DNA of 11,627 nucleotides from the IMG/VR virus record IMGVR_UViG_2531839179_000018, positions 1 to 11,627 of that record; one strand, 5' to 3'. Source of the DNA: a virus (taxonomy: Duplodnaviria; Heunggongvirae; Uroviricota; Caudoviricetes). Position 1 is the first letter of the stretch. Each line of letters opens with the position of its first letter. The notes below the pieces were generated by a model. The model saw only the letters and a list, made by a program, of their open reading frames with translations, ran no database searches and was not told the origin of the DNA. Both the position numbers and the translations under genes were made by a program. Positions 1 through 11,627 of the stretch are shown here, piece after piece.

Positions 1-163
1 CACAACATCCGAGGACAGCATCGTCCGCCAGCCTACAGAAGTCCGGAAAGCCATGGAAGGTCGTTGGGAGGAGGTACGAATTCTATCATGCAAAAAATAC
101 GTAAAATCGATAACGCCTAGAAATCATTCAATACTCGCACTATCGAAAGTTTACCAGCCAACC

Positions 164-192
164 GCGGCACGTTCCTGCATACGACGTGCCGC
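164..192. other. Perfect 9-bp inverted repeat (gcggcacgt / acgtgccgc) with an 11-nt loop, just beyond the stop of the last tail gene
   Basis: Read directly from sequence: 164-172 is the reverse complement of 184-192. No clear U-run follows on either strand, so the terminator role is uncertain. Confidence 0.35.
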
Positions 193-200
193 AGCTTCTG

Positions 201-824
201 TTATTCCACGATAAAATTCCTAACCGAATTCAAATCCTTCAGACTATTCAGCTCTTCCTTCAGCTCCCGCTGACGGCGATAAATCTCGTCATTGCGCTCA
301 ACCTGTGCCTGAGCCATTGCTGCCGCCAGTTCTTCCAGTTCCGGCATCGACAGTTTCACCTGCTGATTATCGGCATCACCCCACGTCATCACGTCCCGTA
401 CAATGTCGGATTTCGCAGCCATTACCACCGGATAAAGGCGGCCCAGTGAGTTGGGGCCAGCATTCCAGATACGACCGTTCCATTCAAACGTGAACGGCTT
501 CGCCTCCTGTTCTGTGCGCCATGCTTCAATTCCCTGACGTCTGGCCTCTCTGGCCGCTTCCAGCATTTCTGGTGTCACAGTGAATGGGGCTATCTCACCC
601 CATTTGCCGCTTTGCAGTTCCTGCCAGATTTGCTGACCCGTCGAAGCGACATCATCAGCGGTGGCTGTGTAGGGGACTGCCTGGTCCCTGTCGTCAAAAA
701 AAACGTCACAGTCTACTGCGCCACTTTCGGTATAACGGGGATTAATGATTTTTTTAATTTCCACGGTGCATTCCTCACGATGTGCGAATAAAAAGCCCGG
801 GCATTGCGCCAGAGACATGTGCAT
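201..824 (-). CDS. Tail-fibre-associated protein, putative fibre assembly chaperone (weak call)
   Basis: 207-aa ORF directly downstream of the Stf-like fibre gene, the position usually held by a Tfa/chaperone. No motif I can name with certainty. It overlaps the fibre gene by 50 nt; a GTG at 762-764 just after the fibre stop is a plausible true start. Confidence 0.45.
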   Translation of the reverse strand: MHMSLAQCPGFLFAHREECTVEIKKIINPRYTESGAVDCDVFFDDRDQAVPYTATADDVASTGQQIWQELQSGKWGEIAPFTVTPEMLEAAREARRQGIEAWRTEQEAKPFTFEWNGRIWNAGPNSLGRLYPVVMAAKSDIVRDVMTWGDADNQQVKLSMPELEELAAAMAQAQVERNDEIYRRQRELKEELNSLKDLNSVRNFIVE

Positions 825-2043
825 CCGGCACCCCGGACAGGGCGCAATATGACCCCGGTAATGAATGCTCTGAACATCCCGTAATGAAAAATTGTGGGGA
901 TGCTATATACGTTCCGGTGGGAGTACTGGTCACTGAAATCCCCACCGGTCCCAGTCGTGAGCCTCTGTATGACCGCCCCCTGACAAGTCTGATGACTTTA
1001 TCACCGTCAGCTTCTCCCTGGTACGCAGCAATAATCAGCCCGCCAATGTCAGGGTCTCCCCATCTGTTGCGGACAGAGCTCGCCACGATTCTGTAAATAA
1101 TATCTTCTGTGGTTATATTTATTTTCACCCAGCCAGTCAGTCTGGATATGGGCCAGTAGCAGTAGCGGGTGTGATAAATGGGGCCGTTAATGCCGTAAAA
1201 AGTAAGGGATTTGGCTCTGTACCTCGGTTCTGTTGTCTCAGGGCGTGCATCAGTCCACCGGATGCTGAGCACCCCTTCAAACCGTGTGTCAGGTATGATG
1301 ATGTCGTAGGGGCCAGCAACGGAATATTCACCTGGCAGCGCATTCCTTACCCAGGCCAGGAAATCACTCTTAGTGTCAAAACGGATAACATCTTCAGGCA
1401 GAAAAGCACGCCCAAAGCCGAATGCGCCGGGTATCGCCAGACGGCCTTTTGTCCGGTCGTAAATGTCGCTCTGTGCTTCCATCGTGGCTGCACTTTTCAG
1501 CCCCAGATTATCCCGGGACTTCTGTTGTGCCTTTTCGCCTGCTGCTGCGATTTCAGACAGATGGTTAGCCGTTTTCAGAGTGCCGGTCAGCGCAGCATCA
1601 ATGTCATTTTTGGCCTGTTCTGCTGCGCGGGCATAACCTGCGGCTGCCGCCACATCCTGCGCCGTCTGCTGTGCGTTTCCGGCTGCGGCCCCGGCGCTCT
1701 GCTGCGCCTGCGCCACCATTTCCTCAAAGCGTTTGACGACATCCGGTTTCAGGTCGCCCTCATCAGGAGCAATCAGAAAGTCATTCAGCGTGCCGGGCTT
1801 TGAGTCCTCATATACAGCAATGTCGCCAACGTTGTACTCGTTGCGCCAGTCCTGTTTCAGATACACACCATATTTTCCAGTCCGCGCATGGAAACAGTAT
1901 TCACCATCGTTTCCTGTCATCACATCAGCAACAGTGTGCATAACCACTTCCGGGGTGTTTACCCGGGATTTCAGAATAATATGGTATCCGGACATGGGGA
2001 TACCTGCGCCATCAGTCAGCGCACCTGATATCACTACAGACAT
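775..2043 (-). CDS. Side tail fibre protein with lambda-Stf-type N-terminal domain
   Basis: 422-aa ORF. The N-terminus (MSVVISGALTDGAGIP...VYEDSKPGTLNDFL) matches the conserved prophage tail-fibre N-terminal domain pattern of lambda Stf, followed by an Ala/Gln-rich coiled-coil-like stretch. The C-terminal ~100 aa are compositionally odd. Confidence 0.7.
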   Translation of the reverse strand: MSVVISGALTDGAGIPMSGYHIILKSRVNTPEVVMHTVADVMTGNDGEYCFHARTGKYGVYLKQDWRNEYNVGDIAVYEDSKPGTLNDFLIAPDEGDLKPDVVKRFEEMVAQAQQSAGAAAGNAQQTAQDVAAAAGYARAAEQAKNDIDAALTGTLKTANHLSEIAAAGEKAQQKSRDNLGLKSAATMEAQSDIYDRTKGRLAIPGAFGFGRAFLPEDVIRFDTKSDFLAWVRNALPGEYSVAGPYDIIIPDTRFEGVLSIRWTDARPETTEPRYRAKSLTFYGINGPIYHTRYCYWPISRLTGWVKINITTEDIIYRIVASSVRNRWGDPDIGGLIIAAYQGEADGDKVIRLVRGRSYRGSRLGPVGISVTSTPTGTYIASPQFFITGCSEHSLPGSYCALSGVPDAHVSGAMPGLFIRTS

Positions 2044-2066
2044 TGTTTTTCTCGCGATAAATTAAA

Positions 2067-2612
2067 TCAGGAAGAACCTTCCGGAGAGACGGGCCATTCA
2101 ATGGCGTTGTATGAGGATTTATCAGTGATGGCGCTGAAATCCATCGCCTGCAGTGATTTCGCGTAAATACGACAGGCTTTCAGCTTTTCTTTATCTTCGT
2201 CGCTGATTAACCCCAGCAGCAGGTCTTCTTCCCATTCCCCTGTCCGGGCACTGACCTGAGCCAGAAGGGCATCACGCTCATCTTCCGCTTTGAGTCTGTA
2301 GTCAAAGACAAATTCATCATTGCGGTAAAACCAGTAACCCGGCGCGGTAATCCGTCGGTTAGCGGTAATATCAGGAACTTCAATAACACTGGCATTGCGT
2401 GGCTCGATGCCTGTCACATCCTTACCGACCCACACCACACGACCGTCTCCGGTGTAAGCTATTTTTATTGTGTCGCTGGCGAAATTCTTCAGCTCTTCAT
2501 ACCAGTTTTTTCCGTCTTCTGAAAAAAGCCAGGTGACCGAATATCGTTTTGTCATCTGATATTGTTCTGCTGTTTTCGGATTACCCGCAGTAATATTTTT
2601 TAAATGCAACAT
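2067..2612 (-). CDS. Tail fibre assembly chaperone (P2 gpG / Mu U family)
   Basis: 181-aa ORF. N-terminus MLHLKNITAGNPKTAEQYQMTK...SEDGKNWYEELKNF closely resembles P2 gpG, and the C-terminus ends in the typical IEWPxxP motif. It starts 2 nt after the fibre stop. Confidence 0.8.
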   Translation of the reverse strand: MLHLKNITAGNPKTAEQYQMTKRYSVTWLFSEDGKNWYEELKNFASDTIKIAYTGDGRVVWVGKDVTGIEPRNASVIEVPDITANRRITAPGYWFYRNDEFVFDYRLKAEDERDALLAQVSARTGEWEEDLLLGLISDEDKEKLKACRIYAKSLQAMDFSAITDKSSYNAIEWPVSPEGSS

Positions 2613-2614
2613 TG

Positions 2615-3817
2615 TTAAATACTCGCTACGTTATACCAGGTGCCATTAATCAGTTTTTGCAGTGGTCGGTAATACACACCGTCAACGTTATCCGCTGAGT
2701 TACGGCCGGTATCCGATATCGCCATCCCTGACAGCCCGTGTCCCGAAGGTGCGCAAAATCTCCACGAAACGGTGTTACTGCCGGGGCTGTAATACATTTC
2801 ATGGCCATACCGTACATCCTGTACCCCCTCTGTTCGATATTTATAGCGGGCATCGAAGTTTCCGTAATTTAACGGAATTACCTGTCCGTTAACAGTGAAC
2901 ACTATGCTGTTATCCGGGTTTCTCTGGCTGAAAAAATGCCAGCCTGAATCATCACCAAGCTCTGCAACAACAGGCCTGGATGGATTACCCCACAAACAAA
3001 ACGCTGCATTTTTCGTGGAGTTGTTGGCGCTGGATAACGTGAATTTTCTGGCAGTTCCGGCCTGAATATTCTTAAAAGCAATAGCCACGCCATTCTGAAA
3101 ACGAAATACATGCTGTCCATTCGCATAAACATCCAGCAGACCATCGCCATTTTGTTTAAACCCGGTATCGTTATCTCCTAAAACGATTGAACTTCCACCT
3201 AACGCATTCGTCGTACCAATGCCAAGGCAACCATTAATGACGGCATTAACCAGAATATTTAGTGTATCCCATTTGAGATTCATCAGGTCTTTAACCCGGC
3301 CGCCAGCGAGGCGGTGTCTCCATTTGAAATATTCATTACCGTTATCCGCCGTTTCAAACCACATGTAGGAATCGGTGTCTGCATCCGAATCATTTTTAAA
3401 TCCAATCTTCGCCCAGTCAGTATTCCGAATCCAGGCGAGGATTGAGTCGTTTTCAAAAGTAAGTCCACCGGACAAGGTATCGCCTTCCTGATGAACATAG
3501 CGTTGATCTGACTGCTCTTTACTGTAAACCTGAAGATTATCCCGTGCCGTCCCTTTATTCTGAAGGTCTGACAGATTGTTCTTCTGCCGCAGGAATATCC
3601 TTTTCGGATCCTCAAGAAGATTTACCCAGCCCGCACTGTCGGAGCCTTCAGGATCGGTCAGGTTATCGTCTGTGGTATTCAGCCAGACCGCTGTTGTTGC
3701 GACTCCGGCGAGAATGGCTCCTTTTGCATATCCACCAATGGCCCCCGCAAAACCGGCATTATACGTGTACAAACCGCCAGCCTGGGCGAACCGTATTGCT
3801 GCGGTAATATCGTACAT
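2615..3817 (-). CDS. Tail fibre protein, major C-terminal portion (P2 gpH / Mu S-like); 3' segment of a gene interrupted at a G10 tract
   Basis: 400-aa ORF containing the conserved fibre C-terminal block ([32 protein letters not shown]...[10 protein letters not shown]). Its frame stays open upstream of the ATG through the homopolymer to a stop at 3872-3874. Confidence 0.8.
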
Positions 3818-3824
3818 CAGACCG

Positions 3825-4016
3825 TTAAAATCCTTGCCGTGTGGCGGTCCCCCCCCCCGCTGAGACCGCTGTCATGGTCGTCGGAGGAAAACCTGAATCA
3901 TACGCAGCATTACCGCTCTCTCTGGTCTGCTGTGTCGCCTTGTCCGGGATACGGTTTTTATCTCCGGTACTCGCAAAGGGGACCGCCAGCTGGCGGGGTT
4001 TATCACTGGCCTTCAT
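3825..4016 (-). CDS. Tail fibre protein, N-terminal segment (5' part of the interrupted fibre gene)
   Basis: 63-aa ORF with a strong Shine-Dalgarno (AAGGAG, 7-nt spacing) before its ATG. It reads through the G10 tract as Gly-Gly-Gly and terminates 8 codons later, in a different frame from the 400-aa ORF. Confidence 0.6.
3849..3858. repeat. Homopolymeric tract, C10 on the plus strand (G10 in the coding sense) inside the tail fibre gene
   Basis: Counted directly from sequence. It lies exactly at the frame change between ORF 3825-4016 and ORF 2615-3817. Confidence 0.95.
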
Positions 4017-4608
4017 TACGGGACTCCTTTAAAACTACTGAAACATAAACACCCGGCGGGGACGGCAGTGCACCCGACGACTGGATAATCGCCAGTTCTG
4101 CCGACGAGAGCGCGGACTCAAAGACGTAACTCATCCTCAGCCCGCCATTATTCAGAACATAAGCCCGGCGTTTTTTTCCGAACATAAACCTCAGCATCCG
4201 GTTAATATCCGGAACGGAACAGTCAGTAATATTCGACATGGCTTTCATCAGGATCAGTCGCCGGTATATGGCATCAGTCAGGTCAACAGTCCGGGTAACC
4301 GATTTTCCGTTGTAAAACGGTGCCTGATTAAACGGGCGGGAATCATCCATTACCGGGGTGTCCATCCTGGACTCGCTGAAGCCCAGGTAATTAAAATCGT
4401 CCTTTACCGTCAGCCGGCGACTGACACCCACAATCTTTCCCCAGACATCAAGACCATACTTTTCTGCGGTATCGATGTTCCAGATAAGACCATAAAAATC
4501 ACTGATAAAACTGTCGGGGGAAAGCGCTGCGTTAAAGCTGTTAATGAGGGCATTGAGTCGGGAGCTGGCAGCATACTGCGCAAGCACAGTGGCAGCCACA
4601 TTCTGCAC
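4003..4608 (-). CDS. Baseplate/tail protein in the gpI / Mu gp48 position
   Basis: 201-aa ORF between the J-like gene and the fibre gene. The call rests on synteny with P2 (V-W-J-I-H-G) and Mu (gp45-gp48, S, U); I cannot confirm the sequence family by eye. Confidence 0.45.
4024..4028 (-). promoter_or_regulatory. Shine-Dalgarno sequence for the tail fibre gene start at 4016
   Basis: The minus-strand mRNA reads AAAGGAGUCCCGUA-AUG, giving an AGGAG core 7 nt upstream of the ATG. Confidence 0.6.
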
Positions 4609-4609
4609 G

Positions 4610-5392
4610 TTATGCCTCCTGGAGTTTCACACTGATATCCGACACATCCAGAACCGGAATCTCATCTATCCCGAAAGTGACAGCCGTTGTCCATGACGAA
4701 CCGTCACGGCTCACAGTAAGGCCCAGAATATCAATATGTTCCGGATCGGTTTTGTAAATGCCGGCATAGTAGCGCCCGGCAGAGACAACAGAGGCAACTC
4801 TTGCCCGCAGACCACCATCTGTACCATTAAATGCGTCCAGCACGGATTGCTGTACCTGTCGGGTAATATCTGAAGGCAGGTAGTCACTTTTTTTCAGCGT
4901 CACACTGACATGCAGACTGACGGGTTTGAGTGTCTGCCAGCTGATCACGTATTCAGGATACGGCGGATCGTACTCCTTATCTGCAACAGTGAACGTTGTG
5001 TTGCCATTCATATCAATACCCGGCGGAGCCTTACGCCAGATGGCCGCCGCGATATCTGCCGGGCTGCCGCCGTACACGCCAACATAAAGCGAACCGGGTG
5101 TTAATGGATACTGACTGACTCCGGCTTTTTGTTCTGTTTTTTTCGGATTATGGGTGACGTAAACATCCACCACGTTTTCTACCGTGGAGAGTATTTCACC
5201 CCGGATGGCTTCCAGAATATTCCGGGCATTACGGGCAACTGAATTACGTCGGCGGTTTTCAAAGTCCGCACGGGTTTCCTCATCGCTGCCCGGCACACCG
5301 GCACGGGCGTTAGTGACACCTGACCAGCCAGGTATTGCCTTATAAATTTTATTCAGCGTCCCCACAGGACAGCCGACGGGGCCGGTGGACAA
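4610..5392 (-). CDS. Baseplate J-like protein, C-terminal portion (3' segment of an apparently frameshifted gene)
   Basis: 260-aa ORF that begins at TTG with no Shine-Dalgarno. Its frame is open a further ~20 codons upstream and overlaps the end of ORF 5395-5847; the two ORFs together (~410 aa) match baseplate-J size and position. Confidence 0.6.
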   Translation of the reverse strand: MSTGPVGCPVGTLNKIYKAIPGWSGVTNARAGVPGSDEETRADFENRRRNSVARNARNILEAIRGEILSTVENVVDVYVTHNPKKTEQKAGVSQYPLTPGSLYVGVYGGSPADIAAAIWRKAPPGIDMNGNTTFTVADKEYDPPYPEYVISWQTLKPVSLHVSVTLKKSDYLPSDITRQVQQSVLDAFNGTDGGLRARVASVVSAGRYYAGIYKTDPEHIDILGLTVSRDGSSWTTAVTFGIDEIPVLDVSDISVKLQEA

Positions 5393-5394
5393 AT

Positions 5395-5847
5395 TCAGAA
5401 ATACCGCATCAACCTGCCCTGATGCGCCGATAGTGACGTCTGACTGACATACTTATAACCGGCCTCATCCTGCGCCATACTGCTCGCCGGGATCAGCGTG
5501 CCAACCAGCCCGGTACAGGTCGCTGTTACTGTCGTACCTGTGGCCCCACGGCGCTCCAGGAAATAAATCCTGCCTATTGCATCCTGAAAGCGACCACTGA
5601 AAAAGTCAGGGTTGATCTGGTTAACGATATACAGCAACTGATCGTTTTTATCCGCAATAATGGCGCTTTCGCTGGATGCAAGTTGTCCCTGCGGACTGCT
5701 CAGACTGGTACTCATGGCCCCGCCCAGCGCCGCCGAAAAATCAGCAAGCCTGCCGCTCAGAATATCCGCTTCATCCGGCACATTCAGCCCGCTATCCGAA
5801 ATCTGTACAGCGGGCACTGCGGTAGAAAAAGATTTATTTTCACTCAT
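5395..5847 (-). CDS. Baseplate J-like protein, N-terminal portion (5' segment of an apparently frameshifted gene)
   Basis: 150-aa ORF whose start overlaps the upstream gene by 4 nt. It stops at TGA (5395-5397), 2 nt before the downstream ORF's first codon, which is in another frame. Confidence 0.6.
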   Translation of the reverse strand: MSENKSFSTAVPAVQISDSGLNVPDEADILSGRLADFSAALGGAMSTSLSSPQGQLASSESAIIADKNDQLLYIVNQINPDFFSGRFQDAIGRIYFLERRGATGTTVTATCTGLVGTLIPASSMAQDEAGYKYVSQTSLSAHQGRLMRYF

Positions 5848-6200
5848 AGCAGTACCGTAAAAATGTCATTATTGGTATCTGTAATACGCAGCACACCTGT
5901 TACTGTCCGGGTTTGATCAGTTGTGACCTGGCAGACAGCGGCGCTCACGGTCGGCAGTTTAAGTGCTTCCTGTTGCAGAGTGGCATTCACCAGTTGTGTG
6001 CCGGGCCAGTGTCCGAGGATGCGTGGCCAGTAAGGTATGCCAGCCGTTGAGTCGTACCAGCACTCCCCCAGAAAAGTACTGCACGCACACGCCACATCCT
6101 GAGCTACCGCATGGGGATTATCAGTAATGGCAAGATTTCCGGTATCATCAAGCAGGATATCCCATGTCCCGGTGTCAAGAAGAAGTGATCGTGACTGCAT
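5844..6200 (-). CDS. Small baseplate protein in the Mu gp46 / P2 gpW position
   Basis: 118-aa ORF between the spike and J-like genes. The call is by synteny and size only. Confidence 0.45.
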   Translation of the reverse strand: MQSRSLLLDTGTWDILLDDTGNLAITDNPHAVAQDVACACSTFLGECWYDSTAGIPYWPRILGHWPGTQLVNATLQQEALKLPTVSAAVCQVTTDQTRTVTGVLRITDTNNDIFTVLL

Positions 6201-6212
6201 GTTTTCTCCTGT

Positions 6213-6890
6213 TTACCGGGGTCCCTGCGTGGTTGAGCCGCCGGACTCAACGCCGCCGTGAACGTGGTTTCCAAAATCAATACCCCCGATGTTCGAACCG
6301 CCGGAAAGCCTGGACTGCCCGGTAACGTTAAGCCCCTTACTGACGGCGGTATCGCCGTTCAGCGCAATTTGTGGTGAGTTAACGGTGAAGCTTTTCGGCG
6401 CATTAATCACACCCTCAGGCGCGGATATCTCCACTTTCCAGGGAGATACAATCCGTATCTGGTTGTCATCAAATACCACAAACTGGACGGGATCACCGTT
6501 GAGCACGCCACCCAGCCAGATGGCATCAGCATAATTATGGGTACGCTTTGATCCCGGCATCGCAGCCTGACGCGTGGCTTTTACCGCACTGATATCCCGA
6601 TCGCAGATGGCAAGAAAACCGATATCCCCCACATGTGGCGGCATAATCACCGCATTACCGCCCCCCTGTAGTCGCCATACGGGAATGTTATAAATCACCT
6701 CATGTTCAACCGGGGAACCGTCTGCTGCAACGCCCATTACCATCGGTCGGGCCTCAATAAATCCCTCTTCCACGGCTACCACCCGTCCCAGAGTGATAAA
6801 CGCATGACGTCCGAGAAACTGCCGCAGCATAAAGTCCTGTGCATTGATTTCGCTGTTCACGTCTGTCGGGTTACTGAGTGGTTGTGCCAT
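6213..6890 (-). CDS. Baseplate central spike protein (P2 gpV / Mu gp45-like)
   Basis: 225-aa ORF of the right size and position for a spike protein, with a Gly-rich C-terminus carrying an HxH motif (GIDFGNHVHGGVESGG), as seen in spike apex domains. A Met at residue 21 is an alternative start lying after the upstream stop. Confidence 0.65.
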   Translation of the reverse strand: MAQPLSNPTDVNSEINAQDFMLRQFLGRHAFITLGRVVAVEEGFIEARPMVMGVAADGSPVEHEVIYNIPVWRLQGGGNAVIMPPHVGDIGFLAICDRDISAVKATRQAAMPGSKRTHNYADAIWLGGVLNGDPVQFVVFDDNQIRIVSPWKVEISAPEGVINAPKSFTVNSPQIALNGDTAVSKGLNVTGQSRLSGGSNIGGIDFGNHVHGGVESGGSTTQGPR

Positions 6891-7740
6891 TTTCTTCAGC
6901 CCTCATCATGGTACAGTTGGAACTCCACGGACCGCCCACGGTTCGCGAAGTAATGGTGTGTATCACCCCTGTGATCGTATAATCGCCCGTCATATCAGGC
7001 AGTGACGATTCCAGATGCGCTGGCCTGCCAGTAAAGAGATCGGGGCAGAATATCGTGGTGGCGCTGAGTCCGGTCATGGTGTAAACCGGATAGCCAGTCA
7101 GTCCGTGATCCGGCGAAATCAGTACCGGCGGAATATTCCGGTTCTGCCCTTTCGGCCAGATGGTGACTTTCTCCACATTCCCCAGATCAATGTTAATATC
7201 GGCGGCTGAAGCGACATCCAGCATTTGTTGTACAACATTACCGGAAAAATGCGGGTCAGACAGACTGCGGCTGACCCCCTGGTTTTCAAATCCAAGCCCG
7301 ACAGTTGACGCCAGCGCACGGATAATATCTGCAACCGCAACATCGCCCTTTGCGCTGAAATCTGCCGCCGGCTGATTACGCAGATTAAAATGAATCTGTC
7401 CTGTCAGAATGAGCGGAATATCCGGCGCCTGGTTGTAGTCGGCGTATGCATCAGTAATATCACCTTCAAAAATAAGCCGCCCGTCGGCCCACAGCCGCAT
7501 TTTATTTGCGGTACTCTGCTCCTGTCGCCACACACCGCGCCAGCTTAAATTCGTCATATGCGCCGGTGACATTCCCCAGATATACAGCGTGATTTGTGTA
7601 CCAGCCACCCCTCCATATACGGCAATACTGGCAAAACAGCTTGCGTCGGTAATGGTCAGCATATTGCCCTGGCCATTACCAAACGTTCGTCCGTCTGAAA
7701 GAGTGAACTCCACCGTTATTTTACGTTGTCTGTAGCTCAT
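6871..7740 (-). CDS. Tail/baseplate protein, possibly hub-like (Mu gp44 position)
   Basis: 289-aa ORF immediately upstream of the spike gene, with a start that overlaps the stop of the upstream fragment. Function is inferred from position only. Confidence 0.4.
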
Positions 7741-7959
7741 ATCAGTTCCTCAGGTAACAGCCAGTAGAGCCGGTACCGGGATCCGAGCCCCCGCCAGTCA
7801 GGGTCACTATTCCCCTCCGTGTCGGTAAAAAACAGGTCCCCCTGAAACGGCAGGTATCCGTACCGGACAATCCGGTTATTATTCAGACACAGCACGCCAT
7901 ACAGGCACGGTTCACCATTAACAATGATATCGATATACATCCCCGTAGTACGCTGATTC
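7737..7959 (-). pseudogene. 3' remnant (~74 codons) of a phage tail gene truncated by the IS66-family insertion
   Basis: The reading frame is open from the IS66 end at 7960 down to the stop at 7737-7739, and is translationally coupled to the next gene. The 5' part of the gene is replaced by IS sequence. Confidence 0.45.
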
Positions 7960-8897
7960 GTAAGCGCCCCGAGAAGTACGTAGCGTAAGGATTATTTTAC
8001 AGACGAGAAGTTCCAGGGAAGCAGTTCATGCACTTGGTTCGACGGCCAGTCATTGAGCTTCTCGATCACTTCGCGCAACCAGTCCTCCGGCTCCACTTCG
8101 TTCTGTTTGCAGGTGACCAGCAGACTGTAGATGATCGCCGCACTTTCTCCTCCCTTGTCTGAACCGAAAAAGAGATAATTTTTTCTTCCAACCGCCACCG
8201 ATCGTAACGCGTTTTCACCGATGTTGTTGTCTATTTCCACCCAGCCGTCACGACAGAACTCGTTCAGCGCATTCCAGTGATTCAGGATATAGTCGAACGC
8301 CTTCGCCATCTCCGCATGTTTCGACAGCGTTTTCCTCTGCAACTGTATCCAGTCGTACAACGACTGCATCAACTGGACGCTTCTGGCTTTTCTGACTGCA
8401 AGCCGTTCCTCTGCCGGACTGCCACGTATCTCCGCTTCTATATCGTATAACTCTGCTATCCGTCTGAGCGCTTCCTGAGTCATTTCTGTCGGACGGCGCA
8501 CATCCTCGTCATGGATTTTTCGGCGGGCGTGGGCCAGGCACCCGGCTTCCTTCACCCGGCCCGCTTCGTACAGTACGTTATAACCTGCATAGGCATCAGC
8601 CTGCAGTACGCCCTGATACTTTGCCAGGTGGAGCTGCGGATGTTCTCCTTTGCGATCTGCCGAATACGCGAACCAGACGGCTGCCGGCAGGGATGAACCC
8701 GCATTACGATCATCCCTGACGTATACCCACAGACGACCCGTTTTCGTCTTTCCGTTCCCCGGGGCCAGTACTTTCACCGGAGTGTCATCTGCGTGCACCT
8801 TTCCTGCCTCCAGAACATAGTCATTCAGCGCTATATACAGAGGACGGAGTTTGTCTGCCATTTCTGATACCCAGCGCACCATGGTATTACGGCTCAG
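7960..8897 (-). mobile_element. IS66-family insertion sequence, truncated: terminal repeat end plus the 3' part of tnpC
   Basis: The end begins with GTAAGCG at 7960, typical of IS66-family terminal repeats, and carries the tnpC C-terminal ORF. The element is cut at 8897/8898 by the IS3-family end. Confidence 0.7.
7992..8882 (-). pseudogene. IS66-family transposase TnpC, C-terminal fragment (N-terminal ~220 aa missing)
   Basis: 296-aa ORF carrying the C-terminal catalytic region of IS66 TnpC-type transposases (DDTPVKVL...QADAYAGY...HARRK). Full-length TnpC is about 520 aa. Confidence 0.8.
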
Positions 8898-9224
8898 TGA
8901 GGTAGCCTGAGTTTAACGGACACTCCTTCCTGAAATAGAATGGCATCAGAAGGAGCTAATAATGAGCAGAAAAACCCAACGTTACTCTAAAGAGTTCAAA
9001 GCCGAAGCTGTCAGAACGGTTCTTGAAAATCAACTTTCGATCAGTGAAGGCGCTTCCCGATTATCCCTTCCTGAAGGCACTTTAGGACAATGGGTTACCG
9101 CCGCCAGAAAAGGGCTCGGTACTCCTGGTTCCCGCACGGTGGCTGAACTGGAATCTGAAATTCTGCAACTGCGTAAGGCGTTAAATGAAGCTCGCCTTGA
9201 GCGAGATATATTAAAAAAAGCAAC
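8898..9224 (+). mobile_element. IS3-family element (IS600-like), 5' end only: left terminal repeat plus orfA up to the frameshift window
   Basis: The left end TGAGGTAGCCTGAGTTTAACGG resembles the IS911 left end. OrfA begins at 8962 with a Shine-Dalgarno, and the element is cut at 9224 by IS30. Confidence 0.7.
8962..9224 (+). pseudogene. IS3-family OrfA (IS600-like), truncated after ...DILKKAT by IS30
   Basis: Translation MSRKTQRYSKEFKAEAVRTVLENQLSISEGASRLS... has an HTH and leucine-zipper-like OrfA architecture. The six-frame ORF (8962-9330) runs artificially into the IS30 terminal repeat. Confidence 0.75.
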
Positions 9225-10445
9225 TGTAGATTCAATTGGTCAACGCAACAGTTATGTGAAAACATGGGGTTGCGGAGGTTTTTTGAATGAGACGAACATT
9301 TACAGCAGAGGAAAAAGCCTCTGTTTTTGAACTATGGAAGAACGGAACAGGCTTCAGTGAAATAGCGAATATCCTGGGTTCAAAACCCGGAACGATCTTC
9401 ACTATGTTAAGGGATACTGGCGGCATAAAACCCCATGAGCGTAAGCGGGCTGTAGCTCACCTGACACTGTCTGAGCGCGAGGAGATACGAGCTGGTTTGT
9501 CAGCCAAAATGAGCATTCGTGCGATAGCTACTGCGCTGAATCGCAGTCCTTCGACGATCTCACGTGAAGTTCAGCGTAATCGGGGCAGACGCTATTACAA
9601 AGCTGTTGATGCTAATAACCGAGCCAACAGAATGGCGAAAAGGCCAAAACCGTGCTTACTGGATCAAAATTTACCATTGCGAAAGCTTGTTCTGGAAAAG
9701 CTGGAGATGAAATGGTCTCCAGAGCAAATATCAGGATGGTTAAGGCGAACAAAACCACGTCAAAAAACGCTGCGAATATCACCTGAGACAATTTATAAAA
9801 CGCTGTACTTTCGTAGCCGTGAAGCGCTACACCACCTGAATATACAGCATCTGCGACGGTCGCATAGCCTTCGCCATGGCAGGCGTCATACCCGCAAAGG
9901 CGAAAGAGGTACGATTAACATAGTGAACGGAACACCAATTCACGAACGTTCCCGAAATATCGATAACAGACGCTCTCTGGGGCATTGGGAGGGCGATTTA
10001 GTCTCAGGTACAAAAAACTCTCATATAGCCACACTTGTAGACCGAAAATCACGTTATACGATCATCCTTAGACTCAGGGGCAAAGATTCTGTCTCAGTAA
10101 ATCAGGCTCTTACCGACAAATTCCTGAGTTTACCGTCAGAACTCAGAAAATCACTGACATGGGACAGAGGAATGGAACTGGCCAGACATCTAGAATTTAC
10201 TGTCAGCACCGGCGTTAAAGTTTACTTCTGCGATCCTCAGAGTCCTTGGCAGCGGGGAACAAATGAGAACACAAATGGGCTAATTCGGCAGTACTTTCCT
10301 AAAAAGACATGTCTTGCCCAATATACTCAACATGAACTAGATCTGGTTGCTGCTCAGCTAAACAACAGACCGAGAAAGACACTGAAGTTCAAAACACCGA
10401 AAGAGATAATTGAAAGGGGTGTTGCATTGACAGATTGAATCTACA
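9225..10445 (+). mobile_element. IS30, complete (1221 bp) with 26-bp imperfect terminal inverted repeats
   Basis: Left repeat 9225-9250 (tgtagattcaattggtcaacgcaaca) and right repeat 10420-10445 (reverse complement tgtagattcaatctgtcaatgcaaca) match at 23 of 26 positions. Length and single-transposase organisation match IS30. Confidence 0.9.
9287..10438 (+). CDS. insI: IS30 transposase (383 aa), intact
   Basis: Full-length ORF with an N-terminal HTH region and a DDE-type catalytic core; its stop lies inside the right terminal repeat. Confidence 0.9.
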
Positions 10446-10708
10446 GTAGCCTTTTTTAATATTTCATTCTCCATTTCAATGCGTTGTAGCTTTTTCCTCA
10501 GCTTACGTATTTCGATTTGTTCTGGTGTTATCGGAGAGGCTTTTGGTGTTTTGCCCTGACGCTCATCACGCAGTTGTTTGACCCATCTTGTCATTGTGGA
10601 AAGGCCAACATCCATAGCTTTGGCGGCATCTGCCACCGTGTATTTCTGGTCAACAACCAGTTGAGCGGATTCGCGTTTAAACTCTGCGCTAAAATTTCTT
10701 TTTTTCAT
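10446..10708 (-). pseudogene. insN: IS911 OrfA, truncated after ...EILKKAT by IS30
   Basis: Translation [51 protein letters not shown]... is the IS911 OrfA N-terminus as I recall it. The six-frame ORF (10358-10744) is a chimera that adds upstream codons and reads into IS30. Confidence 0.8.
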
Positions 10709-10780
10709 TGGAGCACCTGTGTTGTTCTGAGGTGAGCATATCACCTCTGTTCAGGTGGCCAAATTCAGTGTGCCACTTCA
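10446..10780 (-). mobile_element. IS911 (IS3 family), 5' end only, inverted relative to the IS600-like fragment
   Basis: On the minus strand the element begins TGAAGTGGCACACTGAATTTGGCCACC at 10780 and OrfA starts at 10708. It is cut at 10446 by the IS30 right end. Confidence 0.8.
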
Positions 10781-11627
10781 TATCTTAAACTACCGGAATG
10801 AACTGCTGCATGGAGAAACGCTTTACCTAGATAATCCAAGATCCAACAAAAAAGGAAGAACCGTGCGCACAGTTGATAACTATATCGCCCTGCTCTGTTC
10901 GTTGTTACGTTTTGCGTATCAGTCGGGATTTATATCAACCAAACCATTTGAAGGAGTAAAAAAATTACAGCGAAACAGAATAAAGCCTGACCCGTTATCT
11001 AAAACAGAATTCAATGCATTAATGGAAAGTGAAAAAGGACAGAGCCAAAACTTGTGGAAATTTGCCGTTTACTCCGGGCTTCGTCACGGGGAACTGGCAG
11101 CTCTGGCGTGGGAGGATGTGGATTTCGAGAAGGGAATTGTGAATGTCAGAAGAAACCTGACGATACTTGATATGTTCGGTCCCCCAAAAACAAATGCCGG
11201 GATCCGGACGGTAACATTACTGCAGCCGGCTCTTGAAGCACTGAAGGAGCAATACAAACTGACCGGGCATCATCGCAAAAGCGAAATCACTTTTTATCAT
11301 CGGGAGTACGGCAGAACTGAAAAGCAAAAACTGCATTTTGTTTTCATGCCCAGGGTGTGTAACGAAAAACAGAAACCTTATTACTCGGTAAGCAGTTTGG
11401 GTGCAAGATGGAATGCAGCAGTAAAACGTGCTGGTATTCGCCGCCGTAATCCGTACCATACGCGACATACTTTTGCCTGCTGGCTGTTGACGGCAGGAGC
11501 GAACCCGGCATTTATAGCCAGCCAGATGGGGCATGAAACTGCGCAAATGGTGTATGAAATTTACGGTATGTGGATTGATGACATGAACGACGAACAGATA
11601 GCCATGTTGAATGCGCGGTTATCGTAG
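10781..11627 (+). pseudogene. Tyrosine recombinase (phage integrase), 5'-truncated; C-terminal catalytic domain present
   Basis: C-terminus carries catalytic-domain motifs (HTRHTFA...MGHETAQMVYEIY with the tyrosine nucleophile). The N-terminal domains are absent; sequence upstream of 10781 is the IS911 end, and the ORF's apparent start (GTG at 10755) lies inside it. Confidence 0.8.

Follow-up and report, generated by a model that had tools for sequence, protein, structure and literature searches.

A probable intR pseudogene, cut at an IS911 end, in the remnant of a Rac-type prophage beside ttcA in Shigella

The closest described counterpart of the locus presented here is the cryptic Rac prophage of Escherichia coli K-12, whose integrase IntR (b1345) is the product of the same gene, with the same ttcA neighbour and the same att position. 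In K-12, attL is placed in the 5' end of ttcA, and XisR (YdaQ) has been identified as the excisionase, which Rac excision also requires (PMC4632033). Through IntR and XisR, the K-12 prophage still excises at low frequency (PMC4632033). The locus described below is without intR codons 1-130 and without xisR, and judging from its sequence it would not be able to do the same.

The paradigm of the heterobivalent tyrosine recombinases is lambda Int, and full-length IntR has the same three-part architecture. C-terminal fragments of lambda Int without the arm domain can still bind core sites and cleave them; they are not known to recombine attP with attB, or attL with attR. The remnant is even more truncated than the lambda C65 fragment, as half of the core-binding domain is also missing. 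Int needs its arm-binding domain for the arm sites and its core-binding and catalytic domains for the core sites (PMC1807965), and IntR shares with lambda Int the dependence on arm-site binding and on an excisionase (PMC1807965). Sequence similarity between the two proteins is nevertheless too low for a phmmer search with IntR to find lambda Int.

Prophage “grounding” and IS-driven decay form a well-described pattern (PMC6379469, PMC7545054). The same IS-driven loss of the integrase and the same deletional decay, with sitABCD kept, are seen in cryptic (“grounded”) prophages and in the “PAI sit” island, rich in IS elements, of Shigella and EIEC, and the remnant described here does not differ from grounded prophages in kind. 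The intR pseudogene is of a known kind and is already in GenBank, and the locus is one more case of IS-driven genome reduction in Shigella. Its practical meaning lies in annotation, where the open reading frame (ORF) should be labeled as an intR pseudogene with a missing N-terminus and not as an integrase; beyond this it is of little importance.

The window, i.e., the whole stretch of DNA that was analyzed, consists of the 11,627 nucleotides of IMG/VR virus record IMGVR_UViG_2531839179_000018, positions 1 to 11,627. From left to right, its features are the following:

201-7940, minus strand: surviving tail-fiber and baseplate module, 96-99% identical to EIEC prophage positions 4675880-4683673, with matches to PHROG tail families.
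7960-8897, minus strand: IS66-family fragment, with the terminal GTAAGCG... and the 3' two-thirds of the transposase gene (NCBIfam transpos_IS66, positions 125-386 of 387).
8898-9224, plus strand: IS600 left-end stub of 327 bp, with the left terminal repeat (IRL) and the 5' part of orfA.
9225-10445, plus strand: complete IS30 of 1221 bp, with its transposase at 9287-10438 (NCBIfam transpos_IS30, E 3e-82) and its terminal repeats read.
10446-10780, minus strand: IS911 left-end stub of 335 bp, with the IRL, the 5' UTR hairpin and codons 1-88 of orfA, cut by IS30 and 100% identical to other IS911 copies.
10755-11627, plus strand: fusion ORF of 290 aa, made of nine IS911-derived codons (the ninth a hybrid) and IntR residues 131-411, identical to GenBank EDX34054.1.
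10781-11627, plus strand: 3' part of intR, nucleotides 390-1236 of 1236, with half of the core-binding region and the complete catalytic domain, assigned by 847/847 identity, PF00589 and motif positions.
10863-11627, plus strand: alternative ORF of 254 aa from an internal GTG, with AAGGAAG upstream at a 5-nt spacing, the form annotated in most public Shigella assemblies.

The fusion ORF starts with a GTG inside the IS911 end, according to the ORF listing and the translation of the window. On the plus strand, the IS911 left end (...GGCCAAATTCAGTGTGCCACTTCA) stops at position 10780, which is the last base of the reverse complement of its left terminal repeat (GGTGGCCAAATTCAGTGTGCCACTTCA), and intR begins at 10781. 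The ORF therefore consists of eight full IS911 codons plus two bases (VAKFSVPL, then a hybrid CA|T histidine codon with CA from IS911 and T390 from intR), followed by the 281 residues 131-411 of IntR. This bears out the preliminary description, in which an IS911 terminus cuts into the 5' side of a tyrosine recombinase gene, some 280 residues that include the catalytic motifs are left, and the frame continues for nine codons into the IS911 repeat with an in-frame GTG. The intR part is identical at 847/847 nucleotides to intR of E. coli CFSAN029787, an EIEC genome (NZ_CP011416.1), as well as to that of four further EIEC-like genomes, and it is 95-99% identical to intR of about 2900 other complete E. 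coli genomes (95-100% over all 2919). In GenBank, the 290-aa product is the “Rac prophage; integrase [Shigella dysenteriae 1012]” of a serotype 4 isolate (AAMJ00000000), on a contig where the ORF is followed by ttcA, dbpA, zntB and dgcM.

In Pfam searches, full-length IntR (411 aa) has an Arm-DNA-bind_2 domain at residues 5-69 (E 3e-26) and a Phage_integrase catalytic domain at 205-391. Two SAM-like matches represent the core-binding region, one at 82-139 (21.4 bits against a cut-off of 22.6) and one at 83-187 (16.8 bits against 22.3); both fall just under the gathering score, so the limits of the core-binding region (~82-187) are approximate. With the break at residue 131, the arm domain is lost entirely and the core-binding region loses residues 82-130; about 74 residues of pre-catalytic sequence are left. 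In the remnant ORF, Pfam detects Phage_integrase alone (PF00589, residues 84-270, E 1.4e-23; score 83.9 bits, cut-off 27.1), with no arm-binding or SAM-like match, and the ORF also matches integrase families PHROG 1 and PHROG 216. The earlier view of a protein reduced to its catalytic domain is thus right for the arm-binding part, but it overstates the loss of the core-binding part, only about half of which is gone. All of the catalytic motifs are kept (GLR231HGE, PK266T, YHTR358HT, GH381 and IY391G in IntR numbering), and in an alignment R231, K266, R358, H381 and Y391 fall on active-site residues of Tn1549 Int (6EMY, E 5e-8), the best relative with a solved structure. The remnant is therefore a tyrosine recombinase in the sense of PF00589, by a profile match above the gathering score and by its catalytic residues; compared with a functional integrase of the lambda Int type, it is without the arm domain, a complete core-binding domain and an adjacent excisionase gene. 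The truncated gene is a case of genuine homology and not of chance. A phmmer search of the PDB with IntR residues 70-210 gave chance-level matches only, so that the limits of the core-binding region are those of the Pfam matches, and a single-sequence AlphaFold2 model of the remnant (mean pLDDT 33.6) was discarded as unusable.

At window positions 11461-11475 (IntR 355-359, YHTRH), the first histidine of the HxxR motif aligns with Tyr355 in the comparison with Tn1549 Int, and His356 is adjacent. The same is seen in full-length IntR, so either the family as a whole has this feature or the alignment is shifted, and the truncation is not its cause.

The original setting of the gene can be read from CFSAN029787, where a single ~48.3-kb prophage, flanked by 43-bp att repeats, contains both the tail module and intR. 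The order there is uspF, att, sitABCD, tail fibers, baseplate, tail, head, terminase, lysis, tRNAs, late regulators, replication, immunity, recE/gam, xisR, intR, and then the att within ttcA; in intact prophages, intR lies between the excisionase gene xisR and the host gene ttcA. Window positions 1-7959 correspond to EIEC 4675880-4683673 and positions 10780-11627 to 4719453-4720300. The 35,779 bp in between (4683674-4719452), including xisR, are replaced in the window by 2.8 kb of IS debris at 7960-10779. Neither xisR nor the 5' DNA of intR is present in the window, six related loci (L010-L015) are likewise without them, and an intact integrase N-terminus contiguous upstream was not found in any of seven related loci.

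Both ends of the prophage can be located on neighboring contigs. In AAMJ02000020.1, ttcA begins 51 bp after the intR stop, and the proximal 43-bp att copy covers ttcA codons 3-17, at 59-101 bp to the right of the window (contig positions 3354-3396). The preliminary description had suggested looking for an att site or a tRNA gene immediately right of the window: the att site is indeed there, in the 5' end of ttcA, while no tRNA gene occurs in 10 kb of flank. AFFZ01000026.1, which is 100.000% identical to window positions 1-10824, extends leftward into sitDCBA, the distal att, uspF and ompN. The sitDCBA iron/manganese ABC transporter lies directly left of window position 1 (contig positions 10825-14667), inside the prophage and near the distal att and uspF, and the distal 43-bp att copy is found between sitA and uspF (14625-14667). 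As in a Rac-type prophage at ttcA, intR adjoins ttcA, and att repeats lie in the 5' end of ttcA and at the distal end. Computed from these coordinates, the att-to-att distance in the genome type of the window is ~15.5 kb, compared to ~48.3 kb in the intact prophage. Within the surviving tail module, the baseplate J/gp47 gene (4610-5847, minus strand), a single 413-aa ORF in the EIEC prophage, is frameshifted into ORFs of 150 and 260 aa, and therefore this module is also decaying.

Together, these data make it very probable that the ORF is an intR pseudogene, the remnant of a Rac-type lambdoid prophage that was inserted into the ttcA gene of a Shigella belonging to the S. dysenteriae / S. boydii group and was gutted by IS elements and deletion. 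In the proposed model, an ancestral prophage of ~48 kb would have carried sitABCD as cargo. The IS911 left end would have come to rest at intR nucleotides 389/390, and IS-associated deletions and rearrangements, involving IS911, IS30, IS600 and the IS66-family element, would then have removed intR codons 1-130 and xisR, in what was presumably that order. The same losses would have taken the recombination, immunity, replication, lysis and head genes, leaving ~15.5 kb between the two att copies, where sitABCD and tail genes survive alongside IS debris and the 3' part of intR. The resulting island would be fixed, or “grounded”. Since the remnant has no arm domain, half a core-binding domain, no excisionase and no recognizable promoter, it cannot plausibly be expected to recombine att sites, in either integration or excision. 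The counterpoint is that the ORF is intact with all of its catalytic motifs and that the open frame is conserved in more than 100 Shigella contigs. The idea of an inactive integrase with its prophage locked in place thus fits the missing arm domain and xisR, although what is locked is a gutted ~15.5-kb remnant and not a whole prophage. The ORF would then mark an immobile Rac-type prophage whose sitABCD cargo is now fixed in the Shigella chromosome. The 5' part of intR and xisR could persist at a distant chromosomal site, which would mean an inversion rather than a deletion.

Several start codons are available to the remnant. Its frame is open for 17 codons upstream of intR codon 131, up to a stop at 10728, and the probability of meeting at least one ATG, GTG or TTG in the 16 sense codons upstream of the junction is ~0.55. 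Because a chance start is thus expected ~55% of the time, the in-frame GTG in the IS911 end is not special, and its presence is incidental. This GTG, at 10755, had been put forward as a possible start; it is in frame, but it has no Shine-Dalgarno pairing (anti-SD duplex +1.0 kcal/mol), it lies just downstream of a stable hairpin, and most annotations start further along. The GTG at 10770 has AGGTGG 11 nt upstream, and the one at 10863 has AAGGAAG 5 nt upstream, with an anti-SD duplex of -5.6 kcal/mol. In public annotations, the 254-aa form that starts at GTG 10863 predominates; it is present on 136 Shigella contigs, where it goes by “site-specific integrase [Shigella dysenteriae]” or by “Transposase [Shigella boydii]”. 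A consensus scan of the plus strand from IS30 to ttcA (window 10300-11100 and AAMJ02000020.1 2300-3450) found no sigma-70-like site, a result that, with so simple a scan, is compatible with read-through from the IS30 transposase gene or with a non-consensus promoter. The indigenous promoter of IS3-family elements at the IRL points inward, into the element (PMC2909936, PMC3299598). The remnant is probably not expressed.

The truncation has parallels in other Shigella genomes, where three types of junction can be distinguished. In type A, that of the window, IS911 adjoins intR at nucleotide 390. In type B (L010-L012, junction 5919/5920), the left end (IRL) of IS600 adjoins nucleotide 391, a single base away from where IS911 joins in type A; the frame reaches only five codons into the IS and offers no start codon there. 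In type C (L014, junction 5962/5963), it is the right end (IRR) of IS600 that adjoins nucleotide 440. All three fall within 50 bp (window 10781-10831) and keep the same 254-aa ORF beside ttcA, and these junction types could serve as lineage markers. The remnant copies differ by 0-2 nt, so that they carry no information on selection, and a comparison of synonymous and non-synonymous changes is uninformative. Clustered junctions may reflect a hotspot, insertion targeted beside an existing IS end, or serial modification of a single event. IS911 without OrfA has been reported to favor targets carrying IS ends (PMC3299598), and this preference could be the cause of the adjacent insertions. When targets resembling IS911 or IS600 ends were searched for in intact intR, the best 20-mers matched at 11-15 of 20 positions, no better than shuffled sequences, and none was near nucleotides 390-440.

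Is the 3' end of intR being kept for a reason? It may serve as the promoter or 5' leader of ttcA, with deletions approaching ttcA without crossing into it, a reading that is compatible with a pseudogene. Rac integration replaces the ttcA N-terminus and its upstream region (PMC4632033), the start of ttcA follows so closely on the intR stop, and at least 797 bp of intR remain beside ttcA in all of the loci examined. However, no consensus sigma-70 site is found on the plus strand in the last 1 kb before ttcA, and the clustering of the breakpoints at nucleotides 390-440, rather than nearer to ttcA, is left unexplained, so this reading is unlikely, if worth keeping in mind. Distinctly less probable is a broader proposal in which IS3-family elements preferentially land, or are retained, at intR nucleotides ~390-440 in Shigella and the truncated integrase is kept either for a function, such as interference with the integrase of any Rac-like phage that enters, or as ttcA-driving DNA.

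A retained function of the protein itself is also very doubtful. It would require that the truncated integrase be expressed, from the IS-borne GTG or from GTG 10863, and kept as a dominant-negative form against Rac-like phage integrases, or else for arm-independent cleavage or Holliday-junction resolution. The intact reading frame and catalytic motifs, the persistence of the same 254-aa ORF behind three different IS junctions, and the reasonable Shine-Dalgarno sequence of GTG 10863 all speak for such a role. However, with a divergence of 0-2 nt there has been no time for the frame to decay, the scans gave no promoter-like site, the protein is without half of its core-binding domain, and the IS-borne start is absent in type B. 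One of the two differences in type B and one of the two in type C are non-synonymous, and both of these lie upstream of GTG 10863, which also goes against it.

A simple IS911 insertion, splitting an otherwise intact integrase whose 5' half would lie just beyond the IS, is highly improbable and, for the window, refuted. The clean joint between the IS911 terminal repeat and intR at nucleotides 389/390 is what such an event would leave. The IS911 of the window is however incomplete: only its left 335 bp are present, the remainder is replaced by IS30, and upstream come the IS600 stub, the IS66-family fragment and the tail genes instead of the missing half of intR. A complete IS911::IS30 form is seen only in PSSP01000001.1 and in strain CH4797. 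In PSSP01000001.1, IS911 is complete apart from the inserted IS30, around which a GT target duplication is seen. On its IRR side, this IS911 adjoins unrelated prophage DNA and not intR, and the flanking triplets are unequal (GAT vs. TAT), without target duplication. Even the least rearranged form is hence a deletion or recombination joint and not a simple insertion. The claim that IS911 reduced the integrase thus holds for the terminus found at the break, but not for an insertion of IS911 alone, given the 35,779 bp that are missing.

That the junction is an assembly artefact of repeated IS copies can be set aside almost entirely: IS911, IS30 and IS600 are multicopy and often break or mis-join assemblies, and the draft contig AAMJ02000020.1 begins within the IS66 fragment, but the identical junction occurs in at least four independent assemblies (AAMJ02000020.1, AFFZ01000026.1, UYIS01000021.1 and PSSP01000001.1), among which are contigs of 612 kb and 712 kb and a record of 5.1 Mb, and the one mismatch and three indels over 3.3 kb between the window and AAMJ02000020.1 indicate independent data. 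The junction is therefore real. It is absent in its exact form from the GTDB species-representative genomes and from complete E. coli genomes.

The IS pile that now replaces the prophage DNA varies between strains. The left flank of IS30 is the rest of IS911 in PSSP01000001.1 and the IS600 stub in the window, while in UYIS01000021.1 it is an inverted IS30, after which come the 3' portion of IS600 and then phage head genes; these varied flanks show ongoing rearrangement mediated by IS30, IS600 and IS911. Locus H29, with a match that looked continuous from the tail genes into IS600, proved to belong to another prophage, one that carries ipaH, and does not bear on the arrangement. In UYIS01000021.1 (L009, L013), the IS30 beside the IS911 stub is inverted, and a second IS30 is located at the IS600 stub, ~14 kb away, with a head-gene segment between the two copies. 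This arrangement is an inversion/deletion isomer of that of the window. At the other edge of the pile, the baseplate-plug gene (7737-7959) is cut to 67 codons by the IS66-family terminus (GTAAGCGCCCCGAG... at 7960), and the IS66-family transposase gene is itself cut by the IS600 left end at 8898.

The collapsed IS600'-IS30-'IS911 block also occurs outside of the prophage. In the fec/KpLE2 region of K-12 (NCM3722), a block 99.7% identical to window positions 8898-10780 has the same internal junctions, whereas neither outer flank is shared: in K-12 the block lies between fragments of ISEc52 and of an MFS gene, and in the window between the IS66 fragment and intR'. There is no target duplication around the block in the window (CAG vs. 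TAT). Strain CH4797 has the uncollapsed arrangement, in contrast to the window and K-12. In the block, IS30 adjoins IS600 and IS911 at homologous positions of orfA (after ...ATATTAAAAAAAGCAAC and ...ATATTAAAAAAGGCTAC, respectively), which suggests that there is an IS30 hotspot in the orfA of IS3-family elements and that insertion there was followed by recombination between IS30 copies.
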